53,540 bases of DNA from Deltaproteobacteria bacterium (GCA_016218805.1 JACRCW010000043.1:1-53540); one strand, 5' to 3'. Shown: positions 2,183 to 25,168, numbered from the stretch's first letter. Program-made: numbers and translations. The notes: generated by a model from the sequence alone, not told the origin.

Positions 2183-2187
2183 GGGTG

Positions 2188-6154: not shown

Positions 6155-6229
6155 GCCCGCGCCCCTCGACCGGTGTCGTGTCGTGCCACGCGGGGTTACT
6201 CGCCCGGGCGGGCTGGCCGCAACCGCGCT

Positions 6230-8607: not shown

Positions 8608-8619
8608 CGTCGTCGCTCC

Positions 8620-11600
8620 TCAGAAGTACGGCAGGCCCCAGAAGGTCCCCGAATCACTGCCCACAAACAGCACCCCATCCCAGCTGTCAAACGCCGGCTC
8701 GGACAGGGACGACCCATCAACAACGCTCTCGGACACGGCGGCTCCCGTGAGCAGGTTGCGCCGGTAAAGCCGGCCGTCGGCGGAGACGTACAGCGCGCTG
8801 TTGGCGTTGACCGTCACCACGCCGCCCACCACGCCGGAGGCAGCCTGGAACACGGTGAACGCCGTGTCCCGCGCCAGCGCCAGCGGCGTGGCGGTGAGGG
8901 TGAGCTTGCCCACGCGCCCGTTGGTGGTGACGTAGATGACGCCGTTGGTCCCGGAGGGCACCACGGCCTTCACCGGTCCCTCCACCGTGAAGGACACGCT
9001 CGCCATGGTGTCCGGGTGGATGGCGTACACGGCCGCAGCGTTGTTGGCCCCCACCACGTAACGGTCGGCAATCTTGCGGGGCTGGCAGGCGAACAACGTC
9101 CCGGACAGCAGCCGGCGGTTGCCGGCCCACGCCGCGGGCGGGTTGGGGACCGCGGTGCCCGCCCCCGCCGACACGTCGAACCCGACGATGCCACCGCCGC
9201 CCGACGCAATGGGCACCAACGCCCAGCCGCGCGTGTAATCCAGGTAGCTGTCGGCGCGGACGGACTCGTTGTTGGCGAGCGCAAACGACCACAACTCGCC
9301 CGCCAGCAGGGGGTCCAGCGCGCGGATGCTGTTGGCAAGGTCGTTGGTGCCCACCAGCAGGAAGTCCTCGGTTGCCGCGGGCAGCAGCGAAGCCAGTGCC
9401 ACGTGCACGCTGCTCCCGGCAGCCCGCCCCAGGGCGCGGGTGATGATGGCGTCCACCCCCGCGGGGTCAATCCGGTAGATGTTGCCGTTGGAGGTGTTGT
9501 CCGCCAGGAACACCCGCGTCGCGCCGGTCCCCAGCGTGGCCAGCGTGGCGCGCCGCTGCACGTTGCCACTCAGCGGCACGGCGCGCTGCGTCTCCACACC
9601 CGTGGCGTCTATGGAGAACAGGCTCTGGTTCTGCATGGGCACCAGCGCAATGGCCGGGTTGGTCCCCGTGCCGCGGCGGATGGTGGGCGGCGCCAGCGTG
9701 AAGGACCCGGTGGACCTGGCGGCAAACCACCCCGTCCCCGTCGGCCGCGCCGGCATCGCCACCGTCAGCGGCTGCGAATAGATGCGCGCCGCATCAAAGT
9801 TGTTGAACGCGTAGCTCTGCGCTGTGTCCGCTACCGTGACCGACGCGTCCTCCACGCAGCTCTGCAACGCCGAGGAGCACAGCGCGGTCACGCCTCCCGC
9901 GCCCGGCGGTGTGTACGTCGTCGTATCCACGGGGCCGGTCGCGCCGCGCGTCACCAGCACCCCGGCCGAGTCCCGCGGCGGCACCAGTGGCACCCCGGGG
10001 GTCCCCGCATTGAGGGAGGTGTCCGTCCAGTAGAAGGTGGGGCGCGTGGACGCCGCGCTCCGGACCACCAGCGGGAGCAGCGGGGCGGCCAGCGGCAACA
10101 GCAGATCCAGCGGTGAGACTGACGTGAGCACCGGGGCGCCGTTCCCCACCTTGTACGAAACGCTCAGCGACCCACCCGGTGCTTCGGCGGCAACCGCGGG
10201 AAACACGGAGCCCGTATTGGTGGCGCGCAGGACCACCGTGCTGCCTGTGGCCAGGCCTGGCGTGCAATCAAACCGCACATCCGTGTTGGACACCGCGCCC
10301 ACCACGCAGCCCGGATTGGTCCCCGTGAAGCTGTCCTGCGCCCCGGAGGCCCAGGCCCAGCTGTTGGACGGGCGGGACACCGTCACCTGCGTGACGCTGC
10401 CGCTCCCCGGCCCCTGCATGCGCAGCAACACGCCGCCATCCGCCTTGGTCCCGTACACGGTGCTGTTGACCAGCGTCACGGTGGGCTGCGTGACCACGTT
10501 GAACAGCGCTGAACTGGGTCCCGCCGGGTTGGGCGCCACATTCACCGTCGCCCGCAGACGGTTGTTGTTCCCGGTCCCGGTGTAGCGGAAGTAGACCGCG
10601 TTGGCGGCGGTGGCGCCGTCCGTCATGGCCACGTTGGCCGTGAGCCCCGCCGCCAGGCACGGCGGCACCGTGCAGATGCGCGGCGTCAGGCCGGCCGTCA
10701 CCGTGAAGGTGACGGGGAGCGTGCCCGTGAACCCGGCCGCGCCAATGACCTGGTTGTTGAACGCATCCGTCACCCGCAGGTCAAACGCCGTGTCCACGTT
10801 CTGCAGCACCAGGGACGGGGTTCCCGCCGGCGCGGCGCCTTCGGTGAACGTCTGGCCGGGCAGCAACACGTACGCGTTGGCGGGTGCCGCCGGCGTGATG
10901 ATGTAATCCTTGGGCCCCGCCGTGATGTTCTGGTTCCCGAGCGTGCGGGTGGCCGTCAGCGTCCAGGTGGGCGCGGACCGCCGTGTGTCCCGCAGGTACA
11001 CGCTGCGCGCTGTCACCGTCCGCGCCGTGTAGGTCTGGGTGACGGTGGCGGTGCCCCCGCCGGCGCACGTGGTGCTGGTGAACAGAAAGTCCGCAGGTGA
11101 GGTGGAGGAGAACTGCACGTTGGTGTTGGCCGTGGCCGGCACCGGAAAACCGTAGACGTTGCGCAACTCCGCCGTGAACGGGCCCCGGCACGCCGTGCTG
11201 CTGGCCGCGTAGCTGGGCGTCCCCGCCGGCGCGGTGAAGACCAGCTGCGACGGACCACCGTAATAGGTCACCGTGGTCGCAATGGCGCTGCGCGACGGGG
11301 ACATGGTGAACCCCGACGAATAGCCGGCCCGGGCCGTCACCTGGCTCCAGCCGAAGTAGATCCCCACGTTGCTGGCAAACGTCCCGTTGCCCGTGGCGAT
11401 GCTGCCCCCCGCCGCGGGCGGCGTGGGGTTGGTGGTGGCCGGGTTGAACGCCACGCCGGTGGCCGTTCCCTCCAGCGCGGCCACCTGCAACACCAGTTCG
11501 TAGTTGTAGTTGGTGTTGTTGGTGGTTCCGCTGGAGATGCTGGCCGCGTTGTTGGCCGTATTGGAGATCCGCCGGTCACGCACCCCCGTGGGGTTGCGCA

Positions 11601-12036
11601 GCAGCCCGTTGTACGCCGCCGCCATGGCGGCCTTGGCCGTGGGCGGCGAGGTGCCAAACGTCACCGTCACCGCCTGGCCCGCGGTCAACGGAGTCACCTG
11701 CAGCGCGCTGAAGATGTTCAGCCGGACGCGCCCCCAGTTGGTGACCGCCTGGTCCTGCTGGTAGGTGTTGCCCCGCGCGTCGGCCACCGTGGGCGCCGCC
11801 CCCACCGGGTCCGACGCCACAATAACAATCAGCCGCTGGAACTGCGTGAGGTTGGCGGTGACCGGAATGGTCAGCGTGCGCTGCCCCGCGCTGTAGGACT
11901 GCGCTGAGAAGGGCCCAGCCTCCATGCGCACGTAGTTGTTCTGGGCGTGCGCAACGGCTGGCCAGCAAGCGGCGACAAGCGCAGCCGCTGCTGGCAGCAG
12001 GGCACGTGCACGGGGGGTGCGGTGACGCGTCAGCAT
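8620..12036 (-). CDS. Large secreted Thr/Gly/Ala-rich beta-strand protein with probable C-terminal beta-propeller, paralog of 16584-20198
   Basis: Signal peptide ending AHA-Q, 1138 aa, collinear conserved blocks shared with the paralog. The propeller is an inference. Confidence 0.8.
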   Translation of the reverse strand: MLTRHRTPRARALLPAAAALVAACWPAVAHAQNNYVRMEAGPFSAQSYSAGQRTLTIPVTANLTQFQRLIVIVASDPVGAAPTVADARGNTYQQDQAVTNWGRVRLNIFSALQVTPLTAGQAVTVTFGTSPPTAKAAMAAAYNGLLRNPTGVRDRRISNTANNAASISSGTTNNTNYNYELVLQVAALEGTATGVAFNPATTNPTPPAAGGSIATGNGTFASNVGIYFGWSQVTARAGYSSGFTMSPSRSAIATTVTYYGGPSQLVFTAPAGTPSYAASSTACRGPFTAELRNVYGFPVPATANTNVQFSSTSPADFLFTSTTCAGGGTATVTQTYTARTVTARSVYLRDTRRSAPTWTLTATRTLGNQNITAGPKDYIITPAAPANAYVLLPGQTFTEGAAPAGTPSLVLQNVDTAFDLRVTDAFNNQVIGAAGFTGTLPVTFTVTAGLTPRICTVPPCLAAGLTANVAMTDGATAANAVYFRYTGTGNNNRLRATVNVAPNPAGPSSALFNVVTQPTVTLVNSTVYGTKADGGVLLRMQGPGSGSVTQVTVSRPSNSWAWASGAQDSFTGTNPGCVVGAVSNTDVRFDCTPGLATGSTVVLRATNTGSVFPAVAAEAPGGSLSVSYKVGNGAPVLTSVSPLDLLLPLAAPLLPLVVRSAASTRPTFYWTDTSLNAGTPGVPLVPPRDSAGVLVTRGATGPVDTTTYTPPGAGGVTALCSSALQSCVEDASVTVADTAQSYAFNNFDAARIYSQPLTVAMPARPTGTGWFAARSTGSFTLAPPTIRRGTGTNPAIALVPMQNQSLFSIDATGVETQRAVPLSGNVQRRATLATLGTGATRVFLADNTSNGNIYRIDPAGVDAIITRALGRAAGSSVHVALASLLPAATEDFLLVGTNDLANSIRALDPLLAGELWSFALANNESVRADSYLDYTRGWALVPIASGGGGIVGFDVSAGAGTAVPNPPAAWAGNRRLLSGTLFACQPRKIADRYVVGANNAAAVYAIHPDTMASVSFTVEGPVKAVVPSGTNGVIYVTTNGRVGKLTLTATPLALARDTAFTVFQAASGVVGGVVTVNANSALYVSADGRLYRRNLLTGAAVSESVVDGSSLSEPAFDSWDGVLFVGSDSGTFWGLPYF

Positions 12037-12139
12037 GACGCTTCATTCCTACTGCATGCGTGCTGGCTTCGCCACAAGTGCCTGGGCAGGACCTACAGCG
12101 GCCCACCACGCAGCATGCTGAGCGTCATGCCCGGCGGCG

Positions 12140-15100
12140 TCAGGCGCGTTTCCGGCGGCGCACCCTGACCACCAACACGCCGAACAGCGCGGCCATCAGC
12201 ACGCCCGCGGGAGCGTCCCCGGAGGACGGGGAGGCTTCGCACCCACAGCCGCGCCCGCCCACTTCTTCGTCCTCTGGGGGCTGCGAGCCCGCGTCCGCGC
12301 CCGCCGCATCCCGCGCCCCGGCGTCCGCGTGTGCGGCGTCCGGGCGGATGGCCGCGTCCGTGACCAGCCCGCCGTCATCCAGGACGGCAGCATCACCCGC
12401 CGCCGCGTCGCCCGCCGCCGCGTCGCCCATCGCCGCGTCACCCATTGACGCGTCACTCATTGCCGCGTCACTCATTGCCGCGTCACTCATTGCCGCATCG
12501 GACACCGCCGCATCGGACACCGCCGCGTCGCCAGGTCCCGCGTCGGACGGGAGGCCGCCGTCACTGATGCCGCTGTCCGGCGCCCCGCCGTCCGCAGCAC
12601 CGGCGTCCCCGGTTGGGCCAGCATCCGCCGTGCCCGCGTCCGTGCCCGCATCCGCCAGGGACGCATCCAGTCCGGCGGCGTCCACCGACCCACCGTCCGC
12701 AGGCGCGCCCGCATCACCGCCATCCGCCGCGCCGCCATCCGCGCAGGCCGGGTTGGGCACGCGCAGACACACGTTGGCCACGCAGTCGTCCATCGTGCAC
12801 GCATCGCCGTCGTCGCACTGGGCGGCCGCGGTGCAGCAACCGGTAATCACAGCATCCGCTGGACAGGCGGCGGTCACGCCGTCGCAATAGTCCTCGCGGT
12901 CACAAGTGCCGGCGGCGGGACGGCAGACCAATGCCGAAGTCGCGACGGCGTCCACTGGACACTCCGCGGCGTTGCCGATGCAGTACTCGGACACGTCGCA
13001 ATCTCCGGCCGCCGGACGGCACTCCGTGCTGGCGGCCAGGAACGCGTCCACCGGGCAGTCAACGCCTGACCCGGTGCAGGACTCCGGCGTGTCGCACACG
13101 CCAGCCGCAGGACGGCATTCCGCCGACGCCGGTCGGAACGCATCTGTCGGGCAGTCGGCGCCGGCCCCGGTGCAGGATTCTGCGGTGTCACAAAGGCCTG
13201 CGGACGCACGGCATTCTGTCGACGACGGGAGGAACGCATCCGCCGGGCAGTTTGCTCCGGTGCCAGTGCACCCTTCTGCGGTGTCGCAGACGCCTGCGGA
13301 GGCGCGGCACTCGGTTGACGACGGGAGGAATGCATCCGCCGGGCAGTTCGCTCCGGTGCCCGTGCACGCTTCTGCGGTGTCGCAGACGCCTGCGGACGCA
13401 CGGCACTCAGTTGACGACGGGAGGAACGCATCCGCCGGGCAGTTCGCTCCGGTGCCACTGCACGCTTCCGCGGTGTCGCAGACGCCTGCGGACGCACGGC
13501 ACTCTGTTGACGACGGCAGGAACGCATCCGCCGGGCAGTTCGCTCCGGTGCCACTGCACGCTTCCGCGGTGTCGCAGACGCCTGCGGACGCACGGCACTC
13601 AGTTGACGACGGCAGGAACGCATCCGCCGGGCAGTTCGCTCCGGTGCCCGTGCAGGATTCCGCGGTGTCACAGACGCCCGCGGACGCGCGGCACTCAGCT
13701 GACGACGGCAGGAACGCATCCGCGGGGCAGGCGGTGCCCGTGCCGGTGCAGGATTCCGCCGCATCGCAGGCACCAGCCGACGCGCGACAGGTGGTGGACG
13801 ACGGAAGGAACGCATCCGCCGGACAGTTGGCGCCCGTGCCCGTGCAGGATTCCGCCGCATCGCAGACGTCAACCGACGCGCGGCACGTGGTGGACGCCGG
13901 GAGGAACACATCCGGCGGGCAGTTGGTGCCCGTGCCGGTGCAGGATTCCGCCGTGTCGCAGACGCCTGCGGAGGCACGGCACTCGGTTGACGCCGGGAGG
14001 AACGCATCCGCCGGGCAGGCGGCGCCGGTACCGGCGCAGGATTCTGCGGTGTCGCACGCGCCTGCCGAGGGACGGCACGTGGTGGTGCCCGGTAGGAACC
14101 CGTCCGCGGGACATGCCGCGCCGGTGCCAGTGCACATCTCCGCCTGGTCACACACGTCGCTGGCCGGACGGCAGGTCACCGCGGACGTGGCAAACCCATC
14201 CGCCGGACACGTCACGCCGCTGCCGCTACACACCTCTGCCAGGTCGCAGGGGCCCGCGGCCACACGGCAGACGGTGTTGACCGGAGCCACCCCGTCCGCC
14301 GGGCACGCGGGTGATGCGCCATCACAGCTTTCGCTGGCGTCGCACAGGTCCACCGCGCCACGGCATACCTGCCCCGCGGCGATCAGTTGATCCGCGGGAC
14401 AGGCTGGGCCGGTCCCGGTGCACAGTTCGTCCACGTCGCAGGCGCCTGCCGCCGAGCGGCACACGACACTGGAGCTCTGGAAGGCGTCAGCCGGGCACGC
14501 TGTGGTGGTGCCGTTGCATTGTTCGGCGGTGTCGCACGCACCGGCAGACGGCCGGCACGTGATGGTGGCCACCGCCGGGCTGCAGAACCCCTCAAGACCC
14601 ACGACGTTGCAGGCCTGGCAGTCAGTGGCGCTGCCGCCGCCGCACGTGGTGTTGCAGCACACCGCGTCCACACAGAACGCGCCGGGACCGCATTGGACAT
14701 CCGTGGTGCAGTCCGATCCCAGCGTGCGGGCCGCCAGGTAGTTCCACGTCTCACCGCTGACGCCCAGCGGCGCCACACCGGTGAAGCCCCCGAACAGCAC
14801 CATGCGCGTGGAAGGCGCATCCCAGGCCATGCCGCCCTGGAAGGTGGCCGGAGGCGGCGTGTTGGGTTGCAGCGTCTTGAGTTGCCAGGTGGTGCCATCC
14901 CATTCCCAGGTGTCCTGCAGCAGCCCGGTGAGCGTGGACTGGCCACCAAAAAGCACCGCCCTGGAACGCGCCAGGTCCGTGGCCAGGTGGTGGCCGGACC
15001 GCGCCCCGGGCCCCGTCACCGGCCCGGCGACCCAATCCGTGCCGTTCCACAGCCAGGTGTCGTCGTAGTCTGTGCCAAACCCGTCATTCCCGCCGTGCAT

Positions 15101-16312
15101 GATGATGTTGCCGGACACCGGGTCAAACGCCATGGCGTGCTGCATGCGCGGCGGCGGATTGGTGAGGGGGAACAACTGCACCCAGGCGGCGCCCGTCCAG
15201 CTCCACGTTTCGCCCGTGATGGCGTCACCGTCAAACAGGATCATCTCGCCGGACACGGGGTTGGCCGCCATGGCGCTGTTGCCGCGGGGGCTCGGGCCCG
15301 CCACGGGCAGCGGCGCCCACGTGACACCGTTCCACGCCCACGTGTCCGCCAGGGGCATGCCGGCGGCATCCGTCCCGCCAAAGAGCACCACGCGCTGGAA
15401 AGCGCCCCGCCCGTCATACGCAGCGGCGGCGGCCGAACGCACCGGAGGAGAGACACCCGGCGCCAGCGGGACCCACGTGGTCCCGTTCCAGCGCCACGTG
15501 TCGTTGGTGGGCGTGACCGTGTCCGTGCCACCAAACACCACTGTGCTGGACCGGGCCGCGTCAAAGACCACCGTGGGCGCCATGCGCGCGCCCGGTGCCG
15601 CCGCGGGGAACCGCTGCAGCCACTGCACGCGCTCAACAATGGGATCCAGCAGCACGGGGAACACCGCGTCCCGCGTGTCCACGGACATCACCAACACGTC
15701 CGCCACCAGGCGGCTGTGAACCGCAACACGTTTCCCCGCGGCATCCACGGCCACGGGCGCTGACACGCGCCAGCGCGGCACGCCGTCCGCCGCGGAGATC
15801 ACCACCGCGCCGTCCGGATTCAGCACGGGCTCCGCCAGGCCCTCACCGCCCAGCCGCCAGGAGATTTCCCGGGGCGCGGCGGGAGAGCGCAGCAGGTACA
15901 ACCATTCAGCAAAGGTCCCGTCGGAGAGGACTGCGGCGTCCGTGTCCGCGTAGACGCCCGCGTAGTGCGCGCGGGGGCCAACGGCGCTGGCCTGTGCCGT
16001 TTCGGCGTTCACGTGCTGCACGTGCAAAGCCTGGGAATCCGCAGCGCCTGAGCCCACGGTGAACATGCCGCCCGCGTGTGTGGGCAGGTTGACCACCATT
16101 GGGCCGGCCAACCCGCGGATCTGGAGGGTCTCGCCCACGGATGAGATCTCGCCCGTGGCGCCGGCGCGCCAGCGCGCCAGCAGCGCCGGATCCCCGGCGG
16201 AGAGCGCTTCAAACCGGGCCAGTGGTGTGTCCGCCCCCGGGTTTCCCATGCATCCCAGCGTCGTCGCCAGCCACGCCGCCCCCAACGACATCCAACGCGC
16301 CGTACTCCCCAT
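12140..16312 (-). CDS. Surface protein with kelch-like repeats, 18 disintegrin-like Cys repeats, a DA-rich linker and a MYXO-CTERM-like anchor
   Basis: Start MGSTARW...TLGC. Repeated VLFGG...DTW.W.G..W, then CRxxAGxCDxAExCxGxxxxCPxD units, then C-terminal GCGC + hydrophobic helix + RRRKR. Confidence 0.87.
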   Translation of the reverse strand: MGSTARWMSLGAAWLATTLGCMGNPGADTPLARFEALSAGDPALLARWRAGATGEISSVGETLQIRGLAGPMVVNLPTHAGGMFTVGSGAADSQALHVQHVNAETAQASAVGPRAHYAGVYADTDAAVLSDGTFAEWLYLLRSPAAPREISWRLGGEGLAEPVLNPDGAVVISAADGVPRWRVSAPVAVDAAGKRVAVHSRLVADVLVMSVDTRDAVFPVLLDPIVERVQWLQRFPAAAPGARMAPTVVFDAARSSTVVFGGTDTVTPTNDTWRWNGTTWVPLAPGVSPPVRSAAAAAYDGRGAFQRVVLFGGTDAAGMPLADTWAWNGVTWAPLPVAGPSPRGNSAMAANPVSGEMILFDGDAITGETWSWTGAAWVQLFPLTNPPPRMQHAMAFDPVSGNIIMHGGNDGFGTDYDDTWLWNGTDWVAGPVTGPGARSGHHLATDLARSRAVLFGGQSTLTGLLQDTWEWDGTTWQLKTLQPNTPPPATFQGGMAWDAPSTRMVLFGGFTGVAPLGVSGETWNYLAARTLGSDCTTDVQCGPGAFCVDAVCCNTTCGGGSATDCQACNVVGLEGFCSPAVATITCRPSAGACDTAEQCNGTTTACPADAFQSSSVVCRSAAGACDVDELCTGTGPACPADQLIAAGQVCRGAVDLCDASESCDGASPACPADGVAPVNTVCRVAAGPCDLAEVCSGSGVTCPADGFATSAVTCRPASDVCDQAEMCTGTGAACPADGFLPGTTTCRPSAGACDTAESCAGTGAACPADAFLPASTECRASAGVCDTAESCTGTGTNCPPDVFLPASTTCRASVDVCDAAESCTGTGANCPADAFLPSSTTCRASAGACDAAESCTGTGTACPADAFLPSSAECRASAGVCDTAESCTGTGANCPADAFLPSSTECRASAGVCDTAEACSGTGANCPADAFLPSSTECRASAGVCDTAEACSGTGANCPADAFLPSSTECRASAGVCDTAEACTGTGANCPADAFLPSSTECRASAGVCDTAEGCTGTGANCPADAFLPSSTECRASAGLCDTAESCTGAGADCPTDAFRPASAECRPAAGVCDTPESCTGSGVDCPVDAFLAASTECRPAAGDCDVSEYCIGNAAECPVDAVATSALVCRPAAGTCDREDYCDGVTAACPADAVITGCCTAAAQCDDGDACTMDDCVANVCLRVPNPACADGGAADGGDAGAPADGGSVDAAGLDASLADAGTDAGTADAGPTGDAGAADGGAPDSGISDGGLPSDAGPGDAAVSDAAVSDAAMSDAAMSDAAMSDASMGDAAMGDAAAGDAAAGDAAVLDDGGLVTDAAIRPDAAHADAGARDAAGADAGSQPPEDEEVGGRGCGCEASPSSGDAPAGVLMAALFGVLVVRVRRRKRA
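12850..14560 (-). repeat. 96-bp (32-aa) intragenic tandem repeat, about 18 units
   Basis: Units counted in the translation; central units are near-identical (CRASAGVCDTAEACSGTGANCPADAFLPSSTE). Boundaries approximate. Confidence 0.9.
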
Positions 16313-16583
16313 GGCAAGCCTCCCTTTCCGCGGAATGGTGGGTGAGCCGTGAAGCACGGCAGTGTTCACTGTTTCCACGGTTCCCCCTATCGGCCCGGAA
16401 CATGTGCTTCCGAAAGACCGTGCCCCCCCATACCCCAGCGCGGATTGTGTCGAAAGGGTTACCGCGGTTGAACGGCTGGCGGTCGGGGAGTAACCGTTCT
16501 GGGTCTCGGGTGGTGTTTGCGGTTTAGGGCGGGTGATCACGGGGCGGCGTCCGCCCCCGGTACTCTGGAAGCGAGGGCATGCC

Positions 16584-19500
16584 ATGAAGCGACTCGGAAC
16601 GGCGTTTTCCGGGATGGTGTTGGCGGGTGGGTTGTTGGTGGGGGCCCCGGCGTGGGCGCAGGTGGTTGTGATGGGCGCAGGTGGTGGCTCCGGAATTGAC
16701 AACCTGGGCGGGACCACCGCCACCTTCCCCACCGCGGGCACGTTTGTCGTCGGCAACCGCCTGGTCGCCGTGGTGGCGTTCGCCGACGCCTTCGCGACCG
16801 GGAATCTGGGGGGTGCCCCCACACTGGCGGATGACACGGGTGCCAACGCGTATGCGATTGACCGCGACGAGAGCGACGGCGCAACGATGCGCACGGTGGT
16901 GTTCTCCGGTCTGATCACCAACGCCGCCATCGGCAACCTCATTGTCACCATGACCGGCACACCGCCCACCGGCGTCGGGGCGTCCTTCCAGGACTTCTCC
17001 GGGACCGTGCCCTCCACAACTCTGGCGCACTACGTGGACAACGTCTCTTCGCTGTCCGCCAACAGCGCAGCGTTGGAAGCCGTTGCGGTGGCGCCCTTCA
17101 CCACGTCCATTGCAAACACCCTGGTGGTTGCCGGTTACGGGGATGACGGCGTCTTCAACATCAACACGACCGCGTTCAGCGCCCAGCCCCCCGGCGCGGG
17201 GACCTTTGTGCCCACACAGAACTGGCTGGACTTCAGCGCGCCCGAAACGGCGATGTTCCATGAGATCCGCACGACGACTGCGTCCTACAATTCCGTTGAC
17301 CCCACCGCGAGCGGCGCGGCGAACTACAACGGCGTGCTCGTGGCGTACCGCGGCGGGCCCGACCACCTGTCGCTCGCCAGTGGCCCCTCGACCTTGACGG
17401 CGCAGAAGAACGTTGACTGCGCCGCCGCCCCGCCTGCCCCCTTTGTGGTGCAACTGCGCAACGTCAACGGCCTGGTCCCGGCCATCAGCAACTTCACCCT
17501 GCGGGTCACCTCCTCGAGCACCACCTCCAAAGTCAGGATCGTCGCGTCGGGAAGCACGCCGGCCACGTCCTGCCCCCTGGACACCGCCAGCAACGTTGGG
17601 ACGTACACCGCCCTGCTCACCTCTGCGGAGACCTCGTTTGACGTGTACGTGACTGACGCCAAGCGGAACGCCACCGCCATCACGCTCACGGTGGACGCCC
17701 CCACATCAGGGTTTGCGCCCAATGACCATCCCTACCCGCTGACCAACGCGGTGACGTCTTACACGGTCACCGCAGGCGCGCACGCCGCGTACTGCATTGC
17801 GTTTCCCAACCAGACGTACACAGAGGGCCCTGCCAACTGCTTGGGCAGCCAGAACATGGGCAGCCGGGGCATCATCGCGGCGCGGTGCCTCATCAGCACC
17901 ACGCCCACGTCCCCGCAGACGGCCGGCACTCCGTTCAACCTCAATGGCATCATTGCCATTGACAAGTATTGCAACACGGCGTCCGTCAACGGCTCCATCG
18001 CGTTCACCTGGGCCGGACTGAATCCCAACACGGGTGACAGTTCGCAGCCCACGTATGCCACGCCGGTGAGTTTCACCAACGGAGTTGGAACCGGCACCAT
18101 GGCGCTCACTGCGGTGACGTCGCAAAGCAACGCGTTCCTCACGTTCCAGGATTCCTCCGCGCGGGTGGGCGGGAGCTTCACTGCCGTGGGCGCTGCGCAC
18201 CGCTTCAACGTGTCGTTCCCGCCCAACACCAGCACAGCGGCCTTTTCAAACCCCAACACCGCCACCGCCACACGCACTGGCTACGCGGCCCACGCGCCCG
18301 GCGAAGTGGAGGCGCGCATCACCAACGGCACGGGCGGCTCCATCCGCTCCGTGACCATCACCAACCCCGGTTCGCCGTGGGTGTTCACCAGCGGCACGGT
18401 GTTCAACGGGACAACGGATGTGTCCGCCAGCTGGGTACGCACCGTCACCGCCACCTCGGTCAAGTTTGACGCGGGCCTGGGCGTCTTCGCCAACGGCGCC
18501 ACCCTGAAGTTCCGCGCCAACAACGGCGGCGCCTACCCCAACATTGGCGTGGATACTCCGTACACCATGCAGGTGGGTTACACGGGCTTCCAGAGCAACA
18601 CCAACGCCATCCCGTCGGCGCCGGCGAACCAGTTCACCGTTGTGGTGCCGCCCGCAGTGCTGCAGCTGCCGGTTGCCATCCGGTCCGCGGCGGCGGCGGG
18701 CTCCGTCCTCATCTGGACCAACACGGATCTCACCAAGCACGCGGGCGTGCTGGTGACGCGCGGTGGGACCACCGCTCCCGCGGACCTGACTGCCTACACC
18801 GTCGGCCAGGACCTGGGTGGCGGAACCATTGCCGCGTGCGTGGTGACCGCAGCCGGAACGCAGACCTGCACGGACAGCGCGCTGGGTGACGCCACCACGG
18901 CCACCTACCGCGTCTACAACGTGGACACTTCCAACGGGTATTCCAACGCCGTGACCGTGGACGTCCCCGCGCGGCCGGCCTCCGGGTTTGTCTACAAGCA
19001 CACGGGCCTGGGGCTGGGGAACGGCAGCGCGGACCAGCGCGTCAATGAGACCAGCGGGAGCACCATGCCTGGCACCGGCGCGTACGCCACCTTCACCGCG
19101 GCCAACCGGGGCATCTACTTCGTCAACGCGTCCGGCACCGAAAAGCGGCGGCCGACCCTGTTGAATGACTTCGCGCAGCGCCGCCCGCTGGCCATGAAGC
19201 TCAACGACGGCACGACCCACCGCGTGTACGCGGGTGACATGACGCAGACGGCGTACCTGTTGGACCCCACCACCGACTCCACGCCCGCCACGGCCAACGT
19301 GGGCGCCACCGGCGGCACGCCGCAGGTGCTGGGCGGTCCGGCCGCCGTGACGCGCACCCAGTTCACCGGTCTGAACGCGTCCTTGAACAACGAGGCCATC
19401 TTCATGGCCACCACGGCGGCCACCACCAACAACGCGGTGCGCGCATTCCGGTCTGACCTCACCACCGGGTGGACCAAGTTCATTGGCACCGACGGCATCA

Positions 19501-20198
19501 CCAGCGAGATGTTCACCTTCACCAACGCGGCCGGCCCGCTGGGCGTGCTGCTGGCCCCGGTGGGCACGGCCGGGGGCGGCGTCTACGGAATCGACTTGGC
19601 GACGTACACCGGCGCCGGCGACAGCCAGCCGGCCGGCTGGGGCGCGGGTGGCGGGAACGCCAAGAAGCTGGCGGGCAGCGTGTTCCGCGCGCAATGCCGC
19701 CGCCCGGGTGGCACCGCGAGCTACGTGTTCTGCGGCACCACGGCAGGCAACATCGTAGCGCTGCGCATCAGTGACGGCGTGCAGCTTGCCAGCACCACGG
19801 TTCCCTCCGGGTTGTCCATTCTCCACCTGGTGCCCGTCACCAGCACCACGTATGGGCTGGGCCTGGCGTACGTCACCCGTTCGCCGTCAGCCGGCACGCC
19901 CGCGCACGTGGGACGGCTCACATTCAACGGAACCACCACGTTCACCAGCGTGTTTGATGTCACCGTTCCCGGCGTGGAGGTCCTGTCCGGCGCACTGACG
20001 CTGGAAACGCTGGGCCAGCTGTTTGTGGCCGGCAACGGGTCCATCATCCGCATGAGCCTGCTCAACGGCACCGGCCAGGTCACCACGGCACTGGATGGTT
20101 CGGACGTGAGCGACCCGTTCTACGACAACGCCAGCGATACCGTGTTCATCCAGACCGACAACGGTTCCTTCTGGGCGCGCCCGCGCTCGAGCCTGTGA
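16584..20198 (+). CDS. Large secreted beta-rich protein, paralog of 8620-12036
   Basis: MKRLG...APAWA-Q signal peptide, about 1200 aa, shared blocks such as AGVLVTRG, PARP and DGS..S.P. Confidence 0.82.
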   Translation: MKRLGTAFSGMVLAGGLLVGAPAWAQVVVMGAGGGSGIDNLGGTTATFPTAGTFVVGNRLVAVVAFADAFATGNLGGAPTLADDTGANAYAIDRDESDGATMRTVVFSGLITNAAIGNLIVTMTGTPPTGVGASFQDFSGTVPSTTLAHYVDNVSSLSANSAALEAVAVAPFTTSIANTLVVAGYGDDGVFNINTTAFSAQPPGAGTFVPTQNWLDFSAPETAMFHEIRTTTASYNSVDPTASGAANYNGVLVAYRGGPDHLSLASGPSTLTAQKNVDCAAAPPAPFVVQLRNVNGLVPAISNFTLRVTSSSTTSKVRIVASGSTPATSCPLDTASNVGTYTALLTSAETSFDVYVTDAKRNATAITLTVDAPTSGFAPNDHPYPLTNAVTSYTVTAGAHAAYCIAFPNQTYTEGPANCLGSQNMGSRGIIAARCLISTTPTSPQTAGTPFNLNGIIAIDKYCNTASVNGSIAFTWAGLNPNTGDSSQPTYATPVSFTNGVGTGTMALTAVTSQSNAFLTFQDSSARVGGSFTAVGAAHRFNVSFPPNTSTAAFSNPNTATATRTGYAAHAPGEVEARITNGTGGSIRSVTITNPGSPWVFTSGTVFNGTTDVSASWVRTVTATSVKFDAGLGVFANGATLKFRANNGGAYPNIGVDTPYTMQVGYTGFQSNTNAIPSAPANQFTVVVPPAVLQLPVAIRSAAAAGSVLIWTNTDLTKHAGVLVTRGGTTAPADLTAYTVGQDLGGGTIAACVVTAAGTQTCTDSALGDATTATYRVYNVDTSNGYSNAVTVDVPARPASGFVYKHTGLGLGNGSADQRVNETSGSTMPGTGAYATFTAANRGIYFVNASGTEKRRPTLLNDFAQRRPLAMKLNDGTTHRVYAGDMTQTAYLLDPTTDSTPATANVGATGGTPQVLGGPAAVTRTQFTGLNASLNNEAIFMATTAATTNNAVRAFRSDLTTGWTKFIGTDGITSEMFTFTNAAGPLGVLLAPVGTAGGGVYGIDLATYTGAGDSQPAGWGAGGGNAKKLAGSVFRAQCRRPGGTASYVFCGTTAGNIVALRISDGVQLASTTVPSGLSILHLVPVTSTTYGLGLAYVTRSPSAGTPAHVGRLTFNGTTTFTSVFDVTVPGVEVLSGALTLETLGQLFVAGNGSIIRMSLLNGTGQVTTALDGSDVSDPFYDNASDTVFIQTDNGSFWARPRSSL

Positions 20199-20208
20199 GG
20201 TGCATTCC

Positions 20209-20643
20209 ATGACGACGCGCGTGCTTGCCTTCAACCTGTGCCTGTGGACGGTGCTCTCCGCCTGCGACCGGCCCGGCGACTTCTCCGGCCTGCCGCAGGG
20301 GAGCCCGCAGGGCCCGGCCGTGGTCCACGTCAGTGACGCTGACCAGGACGGCCCCATCACCACCGAATCCGCGGCGGCCTCCGTGGACATCAACTACCCG
20401 GCGCAGGGGCCGGGGGATTCGCTGGTGGTGGAGGTGCTGACGCCGCGGGGCAAGGTGTACCTGACCGACCGCTACCCGTTGCCCCCCTCAGGCACCGTGT
20501 CCATCCGCATCCCGGTGCTGGGGACCGTCATCCAGAACTACCGCATGACCGGGACGTGGACCGTGCGCGCCTACTACAACCATGAGCAGGCGCCTTCGGT
20601 GTTTCAGCAGTTTGACGTGCTCCCCGCCCCTGAGCCGCGCTGA
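20209..20643 (+). CDS. Small lipoprotein of unknown function, paralog of 8173-8607
   Basis: VLSAC lipobox; VEVLTPRGKVY...GTVIQNYRMTGTWTVRAYYN. Confidence 0.8.
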   Translation: MTTRVLAFNLCLWTVLSACDRPGDFSGLPQGSPQGPAVVHVSDADQDGPITTESAAASVDINYPAQGPGDSLVVEVLTPRGKVYLTDRYPLPPSGTVSIRIPVLGTVIQNYRMTGTWTVRAYYNHEQAPSVFQQFDVLPAPEPR

Positions 20644-20771
20644 TTTCCCGGGGCGCCCACCCACCGCCCACCCGTGCCGTTCCGGGTTTGCCACCTGAGG
20701 TTCCGGGTTTCGGCTTGGCCGCCTGGCGCCCCGGCCGGCCGGCTCCGTGAGCACTTCCAACGGCCCCCGTT

Positions 20772-21845
20772 TCAGCGGGCGGCCGCGTCCCTGGCCCGCA
20801 AGGCCGCCCAGCGCAGTGCTGCCCGCAGCGCGCCGTCCGGGCGCTCCGTCCAGGGCCAGCCGGCCAGCAAGGCCCCCAGGCCCTTGTCCGGCGTGCGCCA
20901 GGGCGCTCCGTGCACGCCCGCCAGGCCGGCCAGCACGGGCCTGGCCCACGGGGGCGGGAGCGCGGCGTGCAAGGACAGCTGCCAGCGCGCGGCCAGCAGC
21001 TCCGCCAGCGCCCACCAGGCCCATCCCAGGCCCAGCGCCCGGCAGCGTTGTTCCACCACCGCGGCATCCGCCGCGTGGGCCAGCGCGCCCCAGGCGTCCA
21101 CCGCCATCTTGTAACGCGGCAGGAAGCGGTCCCCCGCCAGGTTGCCCACGGCGATCACCACCAGGTCCTCCGCGCCCGGACCCGGGATGCGCGTGCCGTC
21201 CGGAGTCTCCCAGTCCGCGGCGCGCGCCAGGATGCCCGGCGTGTCATCCCCAAACGGTGGGCTGTTGAGCGCCCGCACATGCAGGTCCACAGCAAGCTGC
21301 CCAGCCGCCAGATAGCACCGCTCCTTGGACGCCAGGGTCGTCGCCACGTGGCGGGGCGGAAGGTCCCTGCGGTAGCCGAGCGCCAGCAGCGCCCCGTGGG
21401 CCTCCGGTTCGGCCGCCGCCGGCACCAGCACGTCCAGGTCGCTCACGCCGCGCCGTCCCCGCCCGCCCAGGAACGCCGCGTCCGTCACCGCGCCCTTGAG
21501 GAACACGTGCGGGACCCCGGCGGCGTGGAACGCGTCATGGACCGCCGCGCGCGCGGTGCTCAGCATCACCGCCTGGGCAAGGCTTCGGCGCCGCGCGCGT
21601 TCCGCGGCCCCCGCCGGGAGCGCCACGCCGCGCGCCAACAGCCCGTCCGCCACCAGGCCGTCCAGTTGCACGGCCTCGGCCTTGCGGAGGAGGGCGGCAA
21701 CCAGCGCACCGTCCGGGTCTGGCAGACGGGCGGCGGGGAGCGCGCGTTGGTGCTGGGCGTGCACCGCCGCGCCCAGCGCGTCCCACATCAGTTCATCCAC
21801 GGGATCCGGTGTGGGGCGCAGCCACGTCCTGACTGGGGCGAACAC
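20772..21845 (-). CDS. Nucleotidyltransferase family protein (NTP_transf_5-like)
   Basis: GVPHVFLKG...R...SDLDVLV...VDLH motif set. Start is uncertain (21845, 21800 or 21788). Confidence 0.8.
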   Translation of the reverse strand: MFAPVRTWLRPTPDPVDELMWDALGAAVHAQHQRALPAARLPDPDGALVAALLRKAEAVQLDGLVADGLLARGVALPAGAAERARRRSLAQAVMLSTARAAVHDAFHAAGVPHVFLKGAVTDAAFLGGRGRRGVSDLDVLVPAAAEPEAHGALLALGYRRDLPPRHVATTLASKERCYLAAGQLAVDLHVRALNSPPFGDDTPGILARAADWETPDGTRIPGPGAEDLVVIAVGNLAGDRFLPRYKMAVDAWGALAHAADAAVVEQRCRALGLGWAWWALAELLAARWQLSLHAALPPPWARPVLAGLAGVHGAPWRTPDKGLGALLAGWPWTERPDGALRAALRWAALRARDAAAR

Positions 21846-21930
21846 GCGGGCAGACTTGAACAAACCAAAGTGGCGTGCAACAGATGACCCATCCGGGGGC
21901 GGACACGCTCCCACCTCACGAGCGTCCGTC

Positions 21931-22095
21931 ATGATGACCCGTCCCAACCCGACGCAGCCCGCTTCATCCTCCCAGACCGTGCCCGCGTACGAGGCACCCG
22001 CCGTGGCGTGGGAAGAGGACTTTGAACCGGCCGGTCAGGTCACCGGTTGTTCTGACAACATCGGTAACTGTGACGAGCGCCCGGAGGTCGTCTGA
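21931..22095 (+). CDS. Putative RiPP precursor peptide (54 aa)
   Basis: MMTRPNPTQPASSSQTVPAYEAPAVAWEEDFEPAGQVTGCSDNIGNCDERPEVV. YxxP leader motif and a two-Cys tail; first gene of the kinase-rSAM-PqqD operon. Confidence 0.78.
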   Translation: MMTRPNPTQPASSSQTVPAYEAPAVAWEEDFEPAGQVTGCSDNIGNCDERPEVV

Positions 22096-22892
22096 GCGGC
22101 AGCGGCCTGGGCATCACGCTCGCCGGCACGCATTACAGGCTGGACTGCCAGGACCCTGAGATCACCGGGCGCGTGGCTGCGCGCTACGCCGGCTTCCTGA
22201 CGGACGCCGCTTCTGCCACCACCGTGACCCTGGATGCGGCAGGCCCTGCACGAGCCCCGCTGGGCAACGCCCCGGTCACGGCGCGGCTGAGCGGGGGGCG
22301 CCTCATTGTGGAACAGGCGGGGGACGAGCCCTGGGGCTGGCTGGACCGGGCTGATGGCCGCGGGCGGGTGGTCCCGCACCGCTCCATGGCCGCGCTGGAC
22401 GTGCTGCTGCGCGCGGACGCCACGGTGCGGGCGTTGGAGGCGGGCGGGTGCGCGTTCCACGCCGCGGCGGTGGTGCTGGCAGACGGGGCGCACCTGTTCC
22501 CCGGCGTGTCCGGGGCGGGCAAGTCCACGGTTGCCCAGCACCTGGCCCGCGAGGGCGGCCGGGTGTTGTCCGACGAGTTTGTCGTGGTGGTGCCGTCGCC
22601 GGGAGGGGTGTGGACGGTGCACGGCAGCCCGTTCTGGTTGGGCAGCGCGGAGCCGGCGCGGTTGGCGCGCGCCTGGCAGCTGGGGCGTGGCGAACGGGCG
22701 GCGGTGACCGGGCTGGATGCGGGGTCCGTGGCGCGGCTCTTGACGCAGAACCTGAGCCTGGTGGTGGAGCCGGAGGGCGGCGTGGCGCGGGCGTTGGCCG
22801 TGGTTGCGCGGTTGGCGGGCGATGTTAAAGGGGGTGAACTCCGGTACGGGCTGGGGCAACCCATCCGGGGGCACCTGGAGCGCGCGGCATGA
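22092..22892 (+). CDS. HPr-kinase-related P-loop protein
   Basis: FHAAAVV...GVSGAGKST (Walker A), VLSDE, GSPFW. The frame is open back to a CTG at 22092; the first GTG is at 22173. Confidence 0.8.
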   Translation: MSGSGLGITLAGTHYRLDCQDPEITGRVAARYAGFLTDAASATTVTLDAAGPARAPLGNAPVTARLSGGRLIVEQAGDEPWGWLDRADGRGRVVPHRSMAALDVLLRADATVRALEAGGCAFHAAAVVLADGAHLFPGVSGAGKSTVAQHLAREGGRVLSDEFVVVVPSPGGVWTVHGSPFWLGSAEPARLARAWQLGRGERAAVTGLDAGSVARLLTQNLSLVVEPEGGVARALAVVARLAGDVKGGELRYGLGQPIRGHLERAA

Positions 22893-23968
22893 GAAACTAC
22901 GGGGAGTGGGTGGCTCGTGCTGCCGGGCTGGGGCGGCCCACCTCAGCGCACTTTGAGCTGACCTACCGCTGCAACCTGCGCTGCAAGCACTGCTTCCAGG
23001 AGCGGGACGCCGCCCCGGATGAACTGACGCGCGCGGACTGGCTGCGCGTGGTGGACCAGGCGCGCGAGGCGGGGATTCTGGTCATCACGCTGTCCGGCGG
23101 CGAGGCCATGCTGTCCCCGCACTTCTGGGACATTGCCGGGCACATCCGCGGCGCGGGGATGGCGTTCAAGCTGTTCACCAACGGGCTGGCGCTCACGCGG
23201 GTGAACTGCGCGCGCCTGGCGGCGCTGCGGCCGGCGGCGGTGGACATCTCCATCTTTTCGCTGGACCCCGCGGTGCATGACGCCATCACGGGCGCGCGCG
23301 GGTCGCTGCGGCGCGCGGTGAGCGGGCTCATCCGCCTGCGGCGTGCGGGCATTGCGGTGAAGGTGAAATGCCCGCTGCTGGATACTTCGTCCGCGGACTT
23401 CCGGCGCGTGCGCGGCCTGGCGCAGCGGTACGGCTGCGGCGTGGTGTTTGACCCGTTCATCAGCCCCAAGTTCAACGGCAACCAGGTGACCACGCAGTGC
23501 CGCGGTGATGATGAGATTCTCTACGAGTACTTTGAGGATGAGTCCACGCGGAAGCCTGGCTTGCGGGCGCTCAACCCCAAGGCGCCGGGTGATGCCATCT
23601 GCGGCGTGGCGCGGCGCTTTGTGACCGTGGCGCCGGACGGGCGGATGATTCCCTGCCCGCGCATGCAGCTGGACGTGGGCAACGTGCGGCACGGGCACCT
23701 GCACCGGATCTTCCTGGAGGCCCCGCTGCTGCAGAAGCTGCGTGCCACCACGTTTGGGGATTTGGCGGGATGCGGGGACTGCTCACGCTCCGGGTACTGC
23801 GGGCGGTGCAGCGCCACCGCGCTGCTGGAGGACGGTGACCTGTACGGGCCGTCCTCCCGGTCCTGCCACCTGGCGGAGGTCAAGGAGCGCGCGTGGGGCG
23901 TGACCCCGCCGGTGGGCGCGTACGTGCCGCACAAGAGCGCGGGCTCACTGCTCAAGGTGCTGCGGTGA
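22889..23968 (+). CDS. Radical SAM protein with SPASM domain (peptide maturase type)
   Basis: CNLRCKHC, SGGEA, FTNG; SPASM Cys pattern C..DGRMIPC...CGDC.....CGRC...C; ATGA overlap with the upstream gene. Confidence 0.93.
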   Translation: MRNYGEWVARAAGLGRPTSAHFELTYRCNLRCKHCFQERDAAPDELTRADWLRVVDQAREAGILVITLSGGEAMLSPHFWDIAGHIRGAGMAFKLFTNGLALTRVNCARLAALRPAAVDISIFSLDPAVHDAITGARGSLRRAVSGLIRLRRAGIAVKVKCPLLDTSSADFRRVRGLAQRYGCGVVFDPFISPKFNGNQVTTQCRGDDEILYEYFEDESTRKPGLRALNPKAPGDAICGVARRFVTVAPDGRMIPCPRMQLDVGNVRHGHLHRIFLEAPLLQKLRATTFGDLAGCGDCSRSGYCGRCSATALLEDGDLYGPSSRSCHLAEVKERAWGVTPPVGAYVPHKSAGSLLKVLR

Positions 23969-24246
23969 GCCAGGTTCACGCGGGAGCGCGCCCGCGCGCC
24001 GCCGCGCGCTGCGCGTGGCAGGCGGTGGAAGGCGAGGCCGTGGTGATTGACCTGGAGACGCGCCGTGTGTTGGGGCTCAACCGCACGGGGTCCCTGGTGT
24101 GGTCCCGCATGGATGGCCGCCGCACGGTGGCGGAGCTGTCCCAGGATGTGGCCGCGGCGTTCCAGGTGGCGCCGGAGACGGCGTCCCGGGATGTGGAAGC
24201 GTTTCTGGCGCCGCTGGTGGCCCGCGGGCTGGTGGAGCTGGCCTGA
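23965..24246 (+). CDS. PqqD family RiPP recognition element (RRE)
   Basis: VEGEAVVIDL...LNRTGSLVW...DG.RTV...F.V......DV..FL..L...GLV; GTGA overlap with the rSAM stop. Confidence 0.92.
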   Translation: MSQVHAGARPRAAARCAWQAVEGEAVVIDLETRRVLGLNRTGSLVWSRMDGRRTVAELSQDVAAAFQVAPETASRDVEAFLAPLVARGLVELA

Positions 24247-24302
24247 GCGGTTTGCTGTCAGGGAGCCAACCAGAGGCATCCCCGCATGCGGACGCCGGCA
24301 TC

Positions 24303-24450
24303 CCGGGAGGACTCGGCTCCGAGCCAGCGTCACGGGGCCAACCACGGAGGCCACAAAACAGCCCCGGACGCCTTACCTGACCGTGCGCGGGATGACGGCG
24401 CCTCTGTGGGGTGACCCGTTGTGGGCTCGGCAGGAGCCGAGTCCTCCCGG
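24303..24450. repeat. 18-bp perfect inverted repeat pair (REP-like)
   Basis: CCGGGAGGACTCGGCTCC (24303-24320) and GGAGCCGAGTCCTCCCGG (24433-24450); GGGCTCGGCAGGAGC also occurs at 1498. Confidence 0.7.
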
Positions 24451-24499
24451 ACCCGGCTCGCCCTCATCCTGGCTTGGACCGGCAAATGAGGGGATCCCG

Positions 24500-25072
24500 T
24501 CAGGGAGCCAACGGGTCGCGGTAGACCTCGTCCACCGCCAGGGCGGCGTCCACGGAGGCCAGGTGTGCGGTTTCGCCGGGACCCCATTCGTGCAGCGTCC
24601 AGCCGCCCTCCTCCCGCCGGAAGACCTCAATGCGGGGACCGCGCTGGGACACCAGGACGTACTCGCGCAGGCTCTCCAGGCGCCGGTAGTGCGCAAACTT
24701 CTCCCCGCGGTCGTACGCTTCGGTGCCGTCTGACAGGACCTCTACGATCACCACCGGGTTGAGCACGCCGTGCGGGTCCGGTTCGGCCGTCTCCACCTTC
24801 CCGCACACCACGGAGACGTCCGGGTAGGTGGACAGGCCGGTGGCACCCACCCGCACGCGCGCGTCAGAGGACAACACCACGCACGGCCGCCCGCGCAGCT
24901 GCGCGAGCAGCGTCGCTCCCACCGCCATTTGCAGGCGCGCGTGCTCCACCGTGCCGCCCGCCATGGCAAACACTTCCCCGTTGACCCATTCGTGCTTTTC
25001 CGCGGCGTGTTCCTCCGCGGCCAGATAGGCCTGATAGCTCATGCGGTTGGCGGCGGCGGCGGCGGTGACCAT
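24500..25072 (-). CDS. Uma2 family putative endonuclease (DUF820)
   Basis: YLAAEE...KHEWVNGEVFAMAGG, YPDVSVVC, VEVLS..TE.YDRGEKF..YR. Confidence 0.9.
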   Translation of the reverse strand: MVTAAAAANRMSYQAYLAAEEHAAEKHEWVNGEVFAMAGGTVEHARLQMAVGATLLAQLRGRPCVVLSSDARVRVGATGLSTYPDVSVVCGKVETAEPDPHGVLNPVVIVEVLSDGTEAYDRGEKFAHYRRLESLREYVLVSQRGPRIEVFRREEGGWTLHEWGPGETAHLASVDAALAVDEVYRDPLAP

Positions 25073-25168
25073 GACGCCGCCCAACATACCACGCGCTCCC
25101 CACCCGGCCTGGGCGCGGTGGACCTTAACGCCGCCGCCGGGGGTGCCGAACGCTCCGCAGGAGGCAAC

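Follow-up and report, generated by a model that had tools for sequence, protein, structure and literature searches.

What kind of peptide is made by a gene cassette that places an HprK-fold kinase and a radical S-adenosylmethionine (radical SAM) enzyme beside a very short open reading frame (ORF)? The question is raised by a stretch of 53,540 nucleotides from a Deltaproteobacteria bacterium (GCA_016218805.1 JACRCW010000043.1:1-53540; hereafter the window), whose GC content is about 70% and whose closest relative among named records is a metagenome-assembled genome of the Myxococcota. Positions 20772 to 24246 encode a 54-residue peptide, the kinase, a radical SAM/SPASM enzyme, a discrete PqqD-type recognition element (RRE) for peptides made by the ribosome and modified after translation (RiPPs), and a divergent nucleotidyltransferase. 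Taken together, our data indicate that the locus is probably a RiPP cluster of the lineage of the linear polyphosphorylated peptides (LPPs) that has gained a radical SAM/SPASM maturase.

Gene set and likeness to LPP clusters

The LPP system was described by Popov et al. (Nat Commun 2026; PMC13381572) for LppA, K, B, S, D and N of Paenibacillus alginolyticus. According to the main text of that paper, the leader follows the consensus YxxPxVLxHQxIxFETxxS, core residue S3 receives up to four phosphates from LppK, LppS cleaves after T-1 and requires LppB, and the clusters of Bacillota sit inside capsular-polysaccharide loci. The LPPs are called there "restricted to the Bacillota", and the authors describe their final product and role as unsolved. 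The window resembles this system in its Y-x-x-P leader, a hydroxyl residue 18 positions past the leader tyrosine (Y+18), a discrete RRE (as LppB), an HprK-like kinase (as LppK), a nucleotidyltransferase of family PF14907 (as LppN) and the lack of a macrolactam cyclase. It differs by its additional radical SAM/SPASM enzyme and by its position in the Myxococcota, beside a secreted beta-propeller protein and not in a capsular-polysaccharide locus; an SpI-like leader peptidase (LppS) and an MsbA-like exporter (LppD) are absent from the window. With these two defining genes missing, the locus falls short of full membership in the LPP family; the most suitable description is a cluster that works in the LPP manner and has an added radical SAM/SPASM maturase. 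An initial annotation, made from the sequence alone, had recognised no known class. This has to be revised, since the peptide, the kinase, the discrete RRE and the PF14907 protein represent four of the six LPP core genes (PMC13381572).

The four plus-strand genes follow each other in the order peptide, kinase, radical SAM/SPASM enzyme and PqqD protein, and the three stop/start overlaps between them were read directly in the sequence (Table 1). The chain of four genes overlapping at CTGA, ATGA and GTGA, the 54-residue peptide at the end of a longer ORF and the divergent nucleotidyltransferase (minus-strand ORF 20772-21947, PF14907) had all been pointed out in the initial annotation, and each of these observations stood. 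A scan of 20100-24700 gave no promoter-like site and a single terminator-like site, located inside the radical SAM gene and below the shuffled-sequence count.

The small ORF proved to be more than a chance frame. A search profile made from 12 Myxococcota precursors of other genomes, from which the window and the loci L004 and L107 were left out, ranked the precursor frame first in the window, with E 1.8e-5 in a set of 1335 frames (the next window frame had E 3.8). The nearest relative, L004 of the window's own family, encodes a small ORF 62% identical to the window precursor. The RiPP-type cluster and the conserved small ORF beside homologous cassettes, both anticipated by the initial annotation, were thus recovered: collecting precursors near the homologues yielded a real family. 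The leader of the window precursor contains Y20-x-x-P23, V25, W27 and F31; T38 (codon 22042-22044) lies 18 residues past Y20, and the core carries C40 and C47 and ends in Val-Val. Among 12 aligned Myxococcota precursors, the window included, Y20, P23, W27 and F31 (window numbering) are invariant, phenylalanine stands at Y+11 in 12/12, and Y+18 bears a hydroxyl in 12/12 (serine in ten, threonine in the window and L004). In the LPP consensus the phosphorylated S3 stands exactly at Y+18. A frameshift fusion of peptide and kinase was rejected, since the two genes are separate in L004, with an ATG start. Some cassettes hold tandem arrays of two or three precursor genes that differ in their cores (L035 6138-6498, L082 4011-4523 and L074 5912-6639).

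The kinase gene probably starts at CTG 22092. This start is favoured because in its frame neither ATG nor GTG nor TTG occurs after the stop at 22071-22073 and before GTG 22173, because the 27 residues before GTG 22173 align to the N-termini of homologues, and because the fold model shows the same residues as confident strands; another CTG, at 22107, may serve as an alternative. In a 28-sequence alignment the residues H123, G138, S140, G141, G143, K144, T146 and D161 are invariant and E162 is nearly so; G138, S140, G141, G143, K144 and T146 make up the P-loop. The AlphaFold2 model (predicted local distance difference test, pLDDT, 93) matched in Foldseek the ATP-dependent phosphoenolpyruvate carboxykinase (PEPCK; E 3.9e-6, TM score 0.54 on the query) and the HprK/P catalytic domain 1kkl_B (E 9.2e-5, TM score 0.51 on the target). 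Sequence comparison gave weaker signals: the kinase profile had weak P-loop and HprK/P matches among the sequences of solved structures (E 0.006-0.018), the NCBIfam matches to HprK_rel_A, ScmC and HprK_rel_B were all far under their cut-offs, and the Pfam scan assigned no family; the precomputed label of the protein is PF27840. The kinase of a Paenibacillus LPP locus (L072) was matched by BLASTP with E 1e-9 and 34% identity. By profile the kinase family comprises 49,938, 19,043 and 3,464 representatives among 1.84 billion at E 1e-3, 1e-10 and 1e-30, respectively.

The discrete RRE matched PqqD (PF05402) with E 4e-19 and the RRE of L072 with E 6e-7 in BLASTP; its NCBIfam matches to ScmD, PqqD and the lasso PqqD were all under the cut-offs. 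Prediction of the PqqD-precursor complex, made with custom alignments, resulted in a score of 0.53 against 0.01 for the best control, with runs agreeing in at least 91% of contacts and a partner pLDDT of at least 54. Among solved complexes, 116 of 157 pass the mark of this test, compared with 2 of 215 mismatched pairs; just 18 of the 157 solved complexes passed with scores of 0.60 or less, a range that also holds both passing mismatches. The prediction lends weak support to binding, and the pass may reflect likeness only, since RRE-leader complexes are already among the solved structures. The divergent gene matched PF14907 (NTP_transf_5) with E 7.7e-23, and a D-x-D motif is seen in its translation. 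The probable start is an ATG at 21932 that abuts the ATG of the precursor, and a methionine at ORF residue 54 is an alternative. The best transferase relative among the fetched loci is that of cassette L069 (37% identity, E 1e-41); PF14907 also occurs in the LPP-type loci L072, L066 and L079, with a BLASTP E of 5e-5 between the window and L072 proteins.

The phosphorylated and phosphoglycosylated lasso peptides (paeninodin with PadeK, ThcoK, SyanK, and pseudomycoidin with PsmK and PsmN) form the second system of comparison. As covered in the review PMC9266682, they share with the window an HprK-homologous kinase, a PF14907-type partner and a Y/W-x-x-P leader bound by a discrete RRE; the association of HprK-like kinases and NTP_transf_5 proteins with lasso-type clusters, mentioned in the initial annotation, is borne out by this source. 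PadeK, ThcoK and SyanK phosphorylate the linear precursor and use a His-Lys-Asp-Asp set, which H123, K144, D161 and E162 (His, Lys, Asp-Glu) of the window kinase match (PMC9266682). However, the lasso kinases described there target a C-terminal serine, whereas the window peptide ends in Val-Val and is accompanied neither by a lasso cyclase nor by a B2 protease. Neither the lasso macrolactam synthetase (C) nor the B2 cysteine protease was present among the ORFs scanned (12-28 kb and parts of the remaining window; the rest of the genome was not searched).

Among NCBIfam names, SynChlorMet (ScmC/D/E/F) and HPr-rel-A scored best for the kinase-like protein, for PqqD and, among others, for the radical SAM enzyme. 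These scores lie far below the curated cut-offs, at 27-34 bits versus 125-200 for the kinase-like protein, and the individual cut-offs were missed for ScmC (26.9/125), ScmD (45.7/100), ScmE (101.4/400) and ScmF (74.4/400 bits). Within the library of papers searched, none contains "SynChlorMet" and none joins "HPr kinase" and "SPASM"; neither "kinase" nor "HPr" occurs in the text of the RRE-Finder paper or of the radical SAM compendium paper. The search also returned no report of a radical SAM enzyme combined with an LPP module, nor of LPP-type clusters outside the Bacillota. The main text of the LPP paper does not contain the terms radical SAM, SPASM, rSAM, Myxococc or Acidobacter, and its supplements may list such members (PMC13381572).

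Loci with and without the radical SAM enzyme

Relatives were collected with a pattern from a kinase alignment of four sequences, which retrieved 370 stretches in GTDB species genomes; 102 of these encode relatives, and the best 80, all from other species, were kept. Gene content was determined with custom profiles over six-frame translations. Because the loci were chosen through the kinase, its presence in them carries no meaning, and since several are short contigs a gene not found may lie off the contig. PqqD was found in 71 of the 80, an S24/SpI-type peptidase in 67, the radical SAM enzyme in 65, a precursor in 58 and PF14907 in 28. The commonest sets were precursor, peptidase, PqqD and radical SAM enzyme (36 loci) and all five genes together (16 loci). 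In the representative loci that were scanned, the Pfam domains were confirmed and no NCBIfam model reached its cut-off.

The cassettes of Acidobacteriota, Thermoanaerobaculia, Elusimicrobiota and others (L005-L082), with kinase, PqqD, SpI-peptidase and radical SAM/SPASM enzyme, contain the same enzyme families as the window, and their leaders share the Y-x-x-P motif with F-E at Y+11/Y+12. They differ in usually having the peptidase in cis and in their cores, which have two or three cysteines, end mostly in serine and have mostly cysteine or glycine at Y+18. From 62 precursor frames of other phyla, two spurious ones (L047 3842-4180 and L055 9521-9634) were removed; among the remaining 60, 33 have two cysteines and 27 have three, the C-terminal residue is serine in 56, threonine in three and proline in one, and Y+18 is cysteine in 36 and glycine in 16, serine occurring solely in the Paenibacillus LPP locus. 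This composition suggests for these precursors a possible C-terminal acceptor as in paeninodin.

Several loci keep the module without the radical SAM enzyme. Among the Bacillota these are L066, L072, L079, L080 and L083. L072 (Paenibacillus sp. 598K), retrieved with the window kinase as bait, agrees with the published account of LPP clusters: its precursor shows the consensus motif and is followed by PF14907, kinase, PqqD, a 150-residue protein, an ABC exporter and then polysaccharide genes. Cassette peptidases of Myxococcaceae and Acidobacteriota are homologues of this 150-residue protein (E 8e-9 to 4e-9; 3e-12 for the corresponding L079 protein). In the Myxococcota, kinase matches were found in 82 of 401 sampled genomes, the window included, and one family accounts for 64 of them among its 172 sampled genomes. 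We analyzed the 19 best Myxococcota loci besides the window, each with 1.5-kb flanks. A precursor-like ORF lies just upstream of the kinase in ten by tblastn and in five more by eye, and a radical SAM enzyme occurs in three.

Three complete Myxococcaceae genomes (L104-L106) carry an S24 peptidase, PqqD, a 185-residue homologue of the window lipoprotein, a propeller protein, the precursor and the kinase; this operon has neither a radical SAM enzyme nor a transferase, no exporter was found in it, and miaA comes directly after its end. The window radical SAM enzyme had no match at E 1e-15 in any of these three genomes. The Myxococcaceae operon shows an LPP-like gene set outside the Bacillota. Two further gene orders include the enzyme. 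L107 encodes peptidase, PqqD, precursor, propeller protein, kinase and a radical SAM enzyme 51% identical to that of the window, and L004 encodes PqqD, propeller protein, lipoprotein, precursor, kinase and a radical SAM enzyme 60% identical, with neither peptidase nor transferase. Given the absence of the radical SAM enzyme from these three Myxococcaceae genomes, precursor, RRE and kinase appear as the constant core and the radical SAM enzyme as an add-on.

The enzyme itself matched Radical_SAM (5.6e-19) and SPASM (7.6e-6) in Pfam. The CX3CX2C motif (C28, C32, C35) is invariant in eight cassette homologues, together with seven further cysteines (C238, C256, C295, C298, C304, C307 and C326), the latter making the SPASM domain complete. 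A fused RRE is absent, as the protein opens directly with the CX3CX2C motif. The nearest sequences of solved structures are PqqE 6c8v (4.1e-15) and SkfB 6efn (2.6e-14). No NCBIfam model reached its cut-off; ScmE, NirJ2, MftC and PqqE are among the relatives below it, and the equivalog scores were 93.8 vs 381 bits for PqqE and 100.5 vs 265 bits for MftC.

These features raise the alternative that the cluster is mainly of the sactipeptide or ranthipeptide type, its class being defined by a radical SAM thioether while kinase and transferase are optional tailoring enzymes. The full SPASM domain, the two core cysteines and the presence of the enzyme in 65 of the 80 loci would fit, as would its sub-cut-off matches to the AlbA, SkfB, StsB and ScmE models. 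No known maturase model was reached at cut-off, however: against the sactipeptide and ranthipeptide maturase families (AlbA, SkfB, StsB, PapB and others) the best score was 73 bits, versus cut-offs of 300-850. The census was anchored on the kinase, so that the presence of the kinase carries no weight here, and the set of PqqD, precursor and kinase is retained in the absence of the radical SAM enzyme in the three Myxococcaceae genomes and in the five Bacillota loci. We consider a sactipeptide-type cluster quite improbable and retain the LPP-like cluster with an added maturase.

Proposed chemistry and points against it

From the gene set, its homologies and its conservation we infer the following order of events. 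The discrete PqqD protein would bind Y20-x-x-P23 of the precursor and present the peptide to the enzymes, as the complex model hints. The HprK-fold kinase may then phosphorylate T38, perhaps several times; this residue is proposed because LppK acts on a serine at the same spacing. The PF14907 transferase could add a sugar or a nucleotide to that phosphate, by analogy with PsmN of pseudomycoidin, a nucleotidyltransferase homologue that adds a hexose to phosphoserine (PMC9266682). The radical SAM/SPASM enzyme would modify C40/C47 of the core; judged from its enzyme class, our guess is most likely a thioether or another cross-link. The leader would finally be cut by a peptidase encoded elsewhere.

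Several observations weigh against this scheme. The candidate acceptor in the window and in L004 is threonine, not serine, and according to the main text of the LPP paper LppK is inactive on the S3T variant and deletion of lppN has no effect in a heterologous host (PMC13381572). The alignment with the LPP consensus is ambiguous: Y, P, V and the Y+18 hydroxyl agree, but F-E stands at Y+11/Y+12 in the window versus Y+13/Y+14, two residues nearer the tyrosine than in the Bacillota LPPs, and two alignments are possible. MAFFT pairs the window F-E-P with the LPP F-E-T through a two-residue gap; cleavage would therefore follow P33, and Q36 instead of T38 would take the position of S3. The window precursor was not recovered by a profile of 10 acidobacterial precursors, and it does not have the C-terminal serine found in 56 of the 60 precursors of other phyla. 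As for the cross-link, a thioether bridge in the reading of the initial annotation, cysteines also occur in precursors of the Myxococcaceae clusters without radical SAM enzyme, and the precursor of L107, which has the enzyme, contains a single cysteine, so that co-variation does not imply a cysteine cross-link.

The missing parts weigh in the same direction. A tblastn search with the Myxococcaceae cluster peptidase gave no match in the window. Contig C36 carries the sole S24/cluster peptidase homologue of the genome, the 13.8 kb fetched around this gene containing no cassette gene, and no ABC domain or exporter is encoded among the window ORFs scanned. The initial annotation had already noted the absence of a cyclase, a protease and a transporter from the locus, and indeed no such domain was found among the neighbouring ORFs scanned. 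One explanation would be that the cluster in the window is incomplete or in decay, having lost peptidase and exporter, and no longer yields a mature product. Two further features could be read in this way: the small-residue pair before the putative cleavage site is P-x-G in place of the A-x-A of the Myxococcaceae, and the transferase gene is inserted in the opposite orientation, so placed that its start codon and that of the precursor abut. But all five frames are open, three of them are coupled by overlaps, and the catalytic and cluster-binding residues are intact. Moreover, L004 retains the precursor and the radical SAM enzyme and likewise has no peptidase, which argues for a maintained variant rather than recent decay. 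We regard loss of function as very unlikely.

Propeller proteins, lipoproteins and flanking genes

The cassette is preceded in the window by the genes of a 1221-residue protein and of a putative lipoprotein (Table 1). The large protein has a signal-peptide-like N-terminus and no Pfam match. An AlphaFold2 model of its last 500 residues (pLDDT 78) matched BamB and designed 8-bladed propellers in Foldseek (E 1e-12 to 1e-10). In 14 of the 19 Myxococcota loci, but in only one of the 80 GTDB loci (L004), a propeller homologue is encoded immediately upstream of the kinase; the propeller protein of L104-L106 is a secreted protein of about 1030 residues with a BamB/PQQ-type (pyrroloquinoline quinone) propeller. 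Lipoprotein homologues were found in L004, L110 and the Myxococcaceae loci. In L107 the frame ending just before the kinase is lipoprotein-like by eye, and tblastn with the window lipoprotein gave no match there. The window contains a paralogue of the large protein at 8620-12042 (-), both being secreted, about 1140-1220 residues long and without Pfam match; it is followed by a second lipoprotein copy at 8173-8619 (-), giving two propeller/lipoprotein pairs.

Table 1. Features of the cassette and of the genes preceding it (positions counted from the first letter of the window)
Feature	Coordinates	Strand	Remark
Precursor peptide, 54 aa	21931..22095	+	Tail of 199-aa ORF 21496-22095
CTGA overlap, peptide stop/putative kinase start	22092-22095	+	Direct reading
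HprK/PEPCK-fold P-loop kinase, LppK-like, 266 aa from probable start CTG 22092	22092..22892	+	
ATGA overlap, kinase/radical SAM enzyme	22889-22892	+	Direct reading
Radical SAM/SPASM enzyme, 359 aa, without fused RRE	22889..23968	+	Pfam Radical_SAM and SPASM
GTGA overlap, radical SAM enzyme/PqqD	23965-23968	+	Direct reading
Discrete PqqD-type RRE, LppB- or lasso-B1-like, 93 aa	23965..24246	+	PF05402
PF14907 nucleotidyltransferase, LppN- or PsmN-like, divergent	20772..21932	-	ORF to TTG 21947
Secreted 1221-aa protein, C-terminal ~400 residues predicted BamB-like 8-bladed beta-propeller	16533..20198	+	
Putative lipoprotein, 147 aa, paired with propeller protein	20200..20643	+	Lipobox-like N-terminus

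Peptide-derived PQQ and the cross-linked gamma subunit of quinohemoprotein amine dehydrogenase both serve beta-propeller enzymes. The modified peptide of the window could likewise be a dedicated ligand, a cofactor precursor or a small subunit of the adjacent propeller protein and lipoprotein, and not a free product. Such a function may share the biosynthetic steps proposed above, the purpose alone being different. The position of the propeller gene upstream of the kinase in most of the 19 loci is consistent with it, as are the propeller and lipoprotein genes between PqqD and precursor in L004, the propeller gene and lipoprotein-like frame between precursor and kinase/radical SAM enzyme in L107, the two pairs in the window and the lack of an exporter among the window ORFs scanned. 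Loci of other phyla contain large co-directional proteins whose genes stop right before the precursor (Kelch proteins in L006 and L013, an FG-GAP protein in L038), and very large proteins with a terminal C25 (gingipain-type) peptidase directly follow the cassette at L030 9591-12854 (Anaerolineae) and L069 7605-12176 (Acidobacteriota). However, a secretion signal is present on the propeller protein but not on the peptide, a Pfam scan of 19 upstream proteins from other phyla left 12 without a match, and synteny in related genomes can last without a functional link. Furthermore, no such partner is listed among the conserved LPP core genes of Bacillota in the LPP paper (PMC13381572). We consider a dedicated partner unlikely.

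Between the two propeller/lipoprotein pairs, positions 12140-17017 (-) encode a 1625-residue protein that combines Kelch repeats with 12 cysteine-rich repeats of the disintegrin-like kind (PF00200, E 1.3e-82), the ORF of which overlaps the start of the 16533 gene. Downstream of the cassette the genes are unrelated (Uma2 nuclease, response regulators, GGDEF proteins); the Uma2-family putative restriction endonuclease directly follows the PqqD gene on the opposite strand (24500-25090). The left flank contains a Bac_transf sugar transferase and a NusG paralogue at 1523-2245 (-) and 5627-6229 (-). A NusG paralogue also adjoins the cassette in L030.

A broader conjecture, to which we assign only a small chance of being right, is that RRE, HprK-fold kinase and SpI-peptidase constitute an old multi-phylum phosphopeptide platform rather than a speciality of the Bacillota, which in the Myxococcota would be hard-wired to the propeller protein and lipoprotein. 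The phosphorylated, radical SAM-cross-linked peptide would then be a partner, cofactor or subunit of a cell-envelope beta-propeller machine, and not an antibiotic.

Under the probable assignment to the LPP lineage, an LPP-like module that recruits and phosphorylates a peptide occurs in the Myxococcota, and a majority of the 80 loci combine such a module with a radical SAM/SPASM enzyme. If this holds, a large uncharacterised set of clusters, represented by the 3,464 members at the most stringent kinase threshold, would gain a testable first step, and natural pairs of clusters with and without the radical SAM enzyme would be at hand for working out the role of this enzyme. The repeated pairing with secreted beta-propeller proteins would then provide a lead to the biological role of these peptides.

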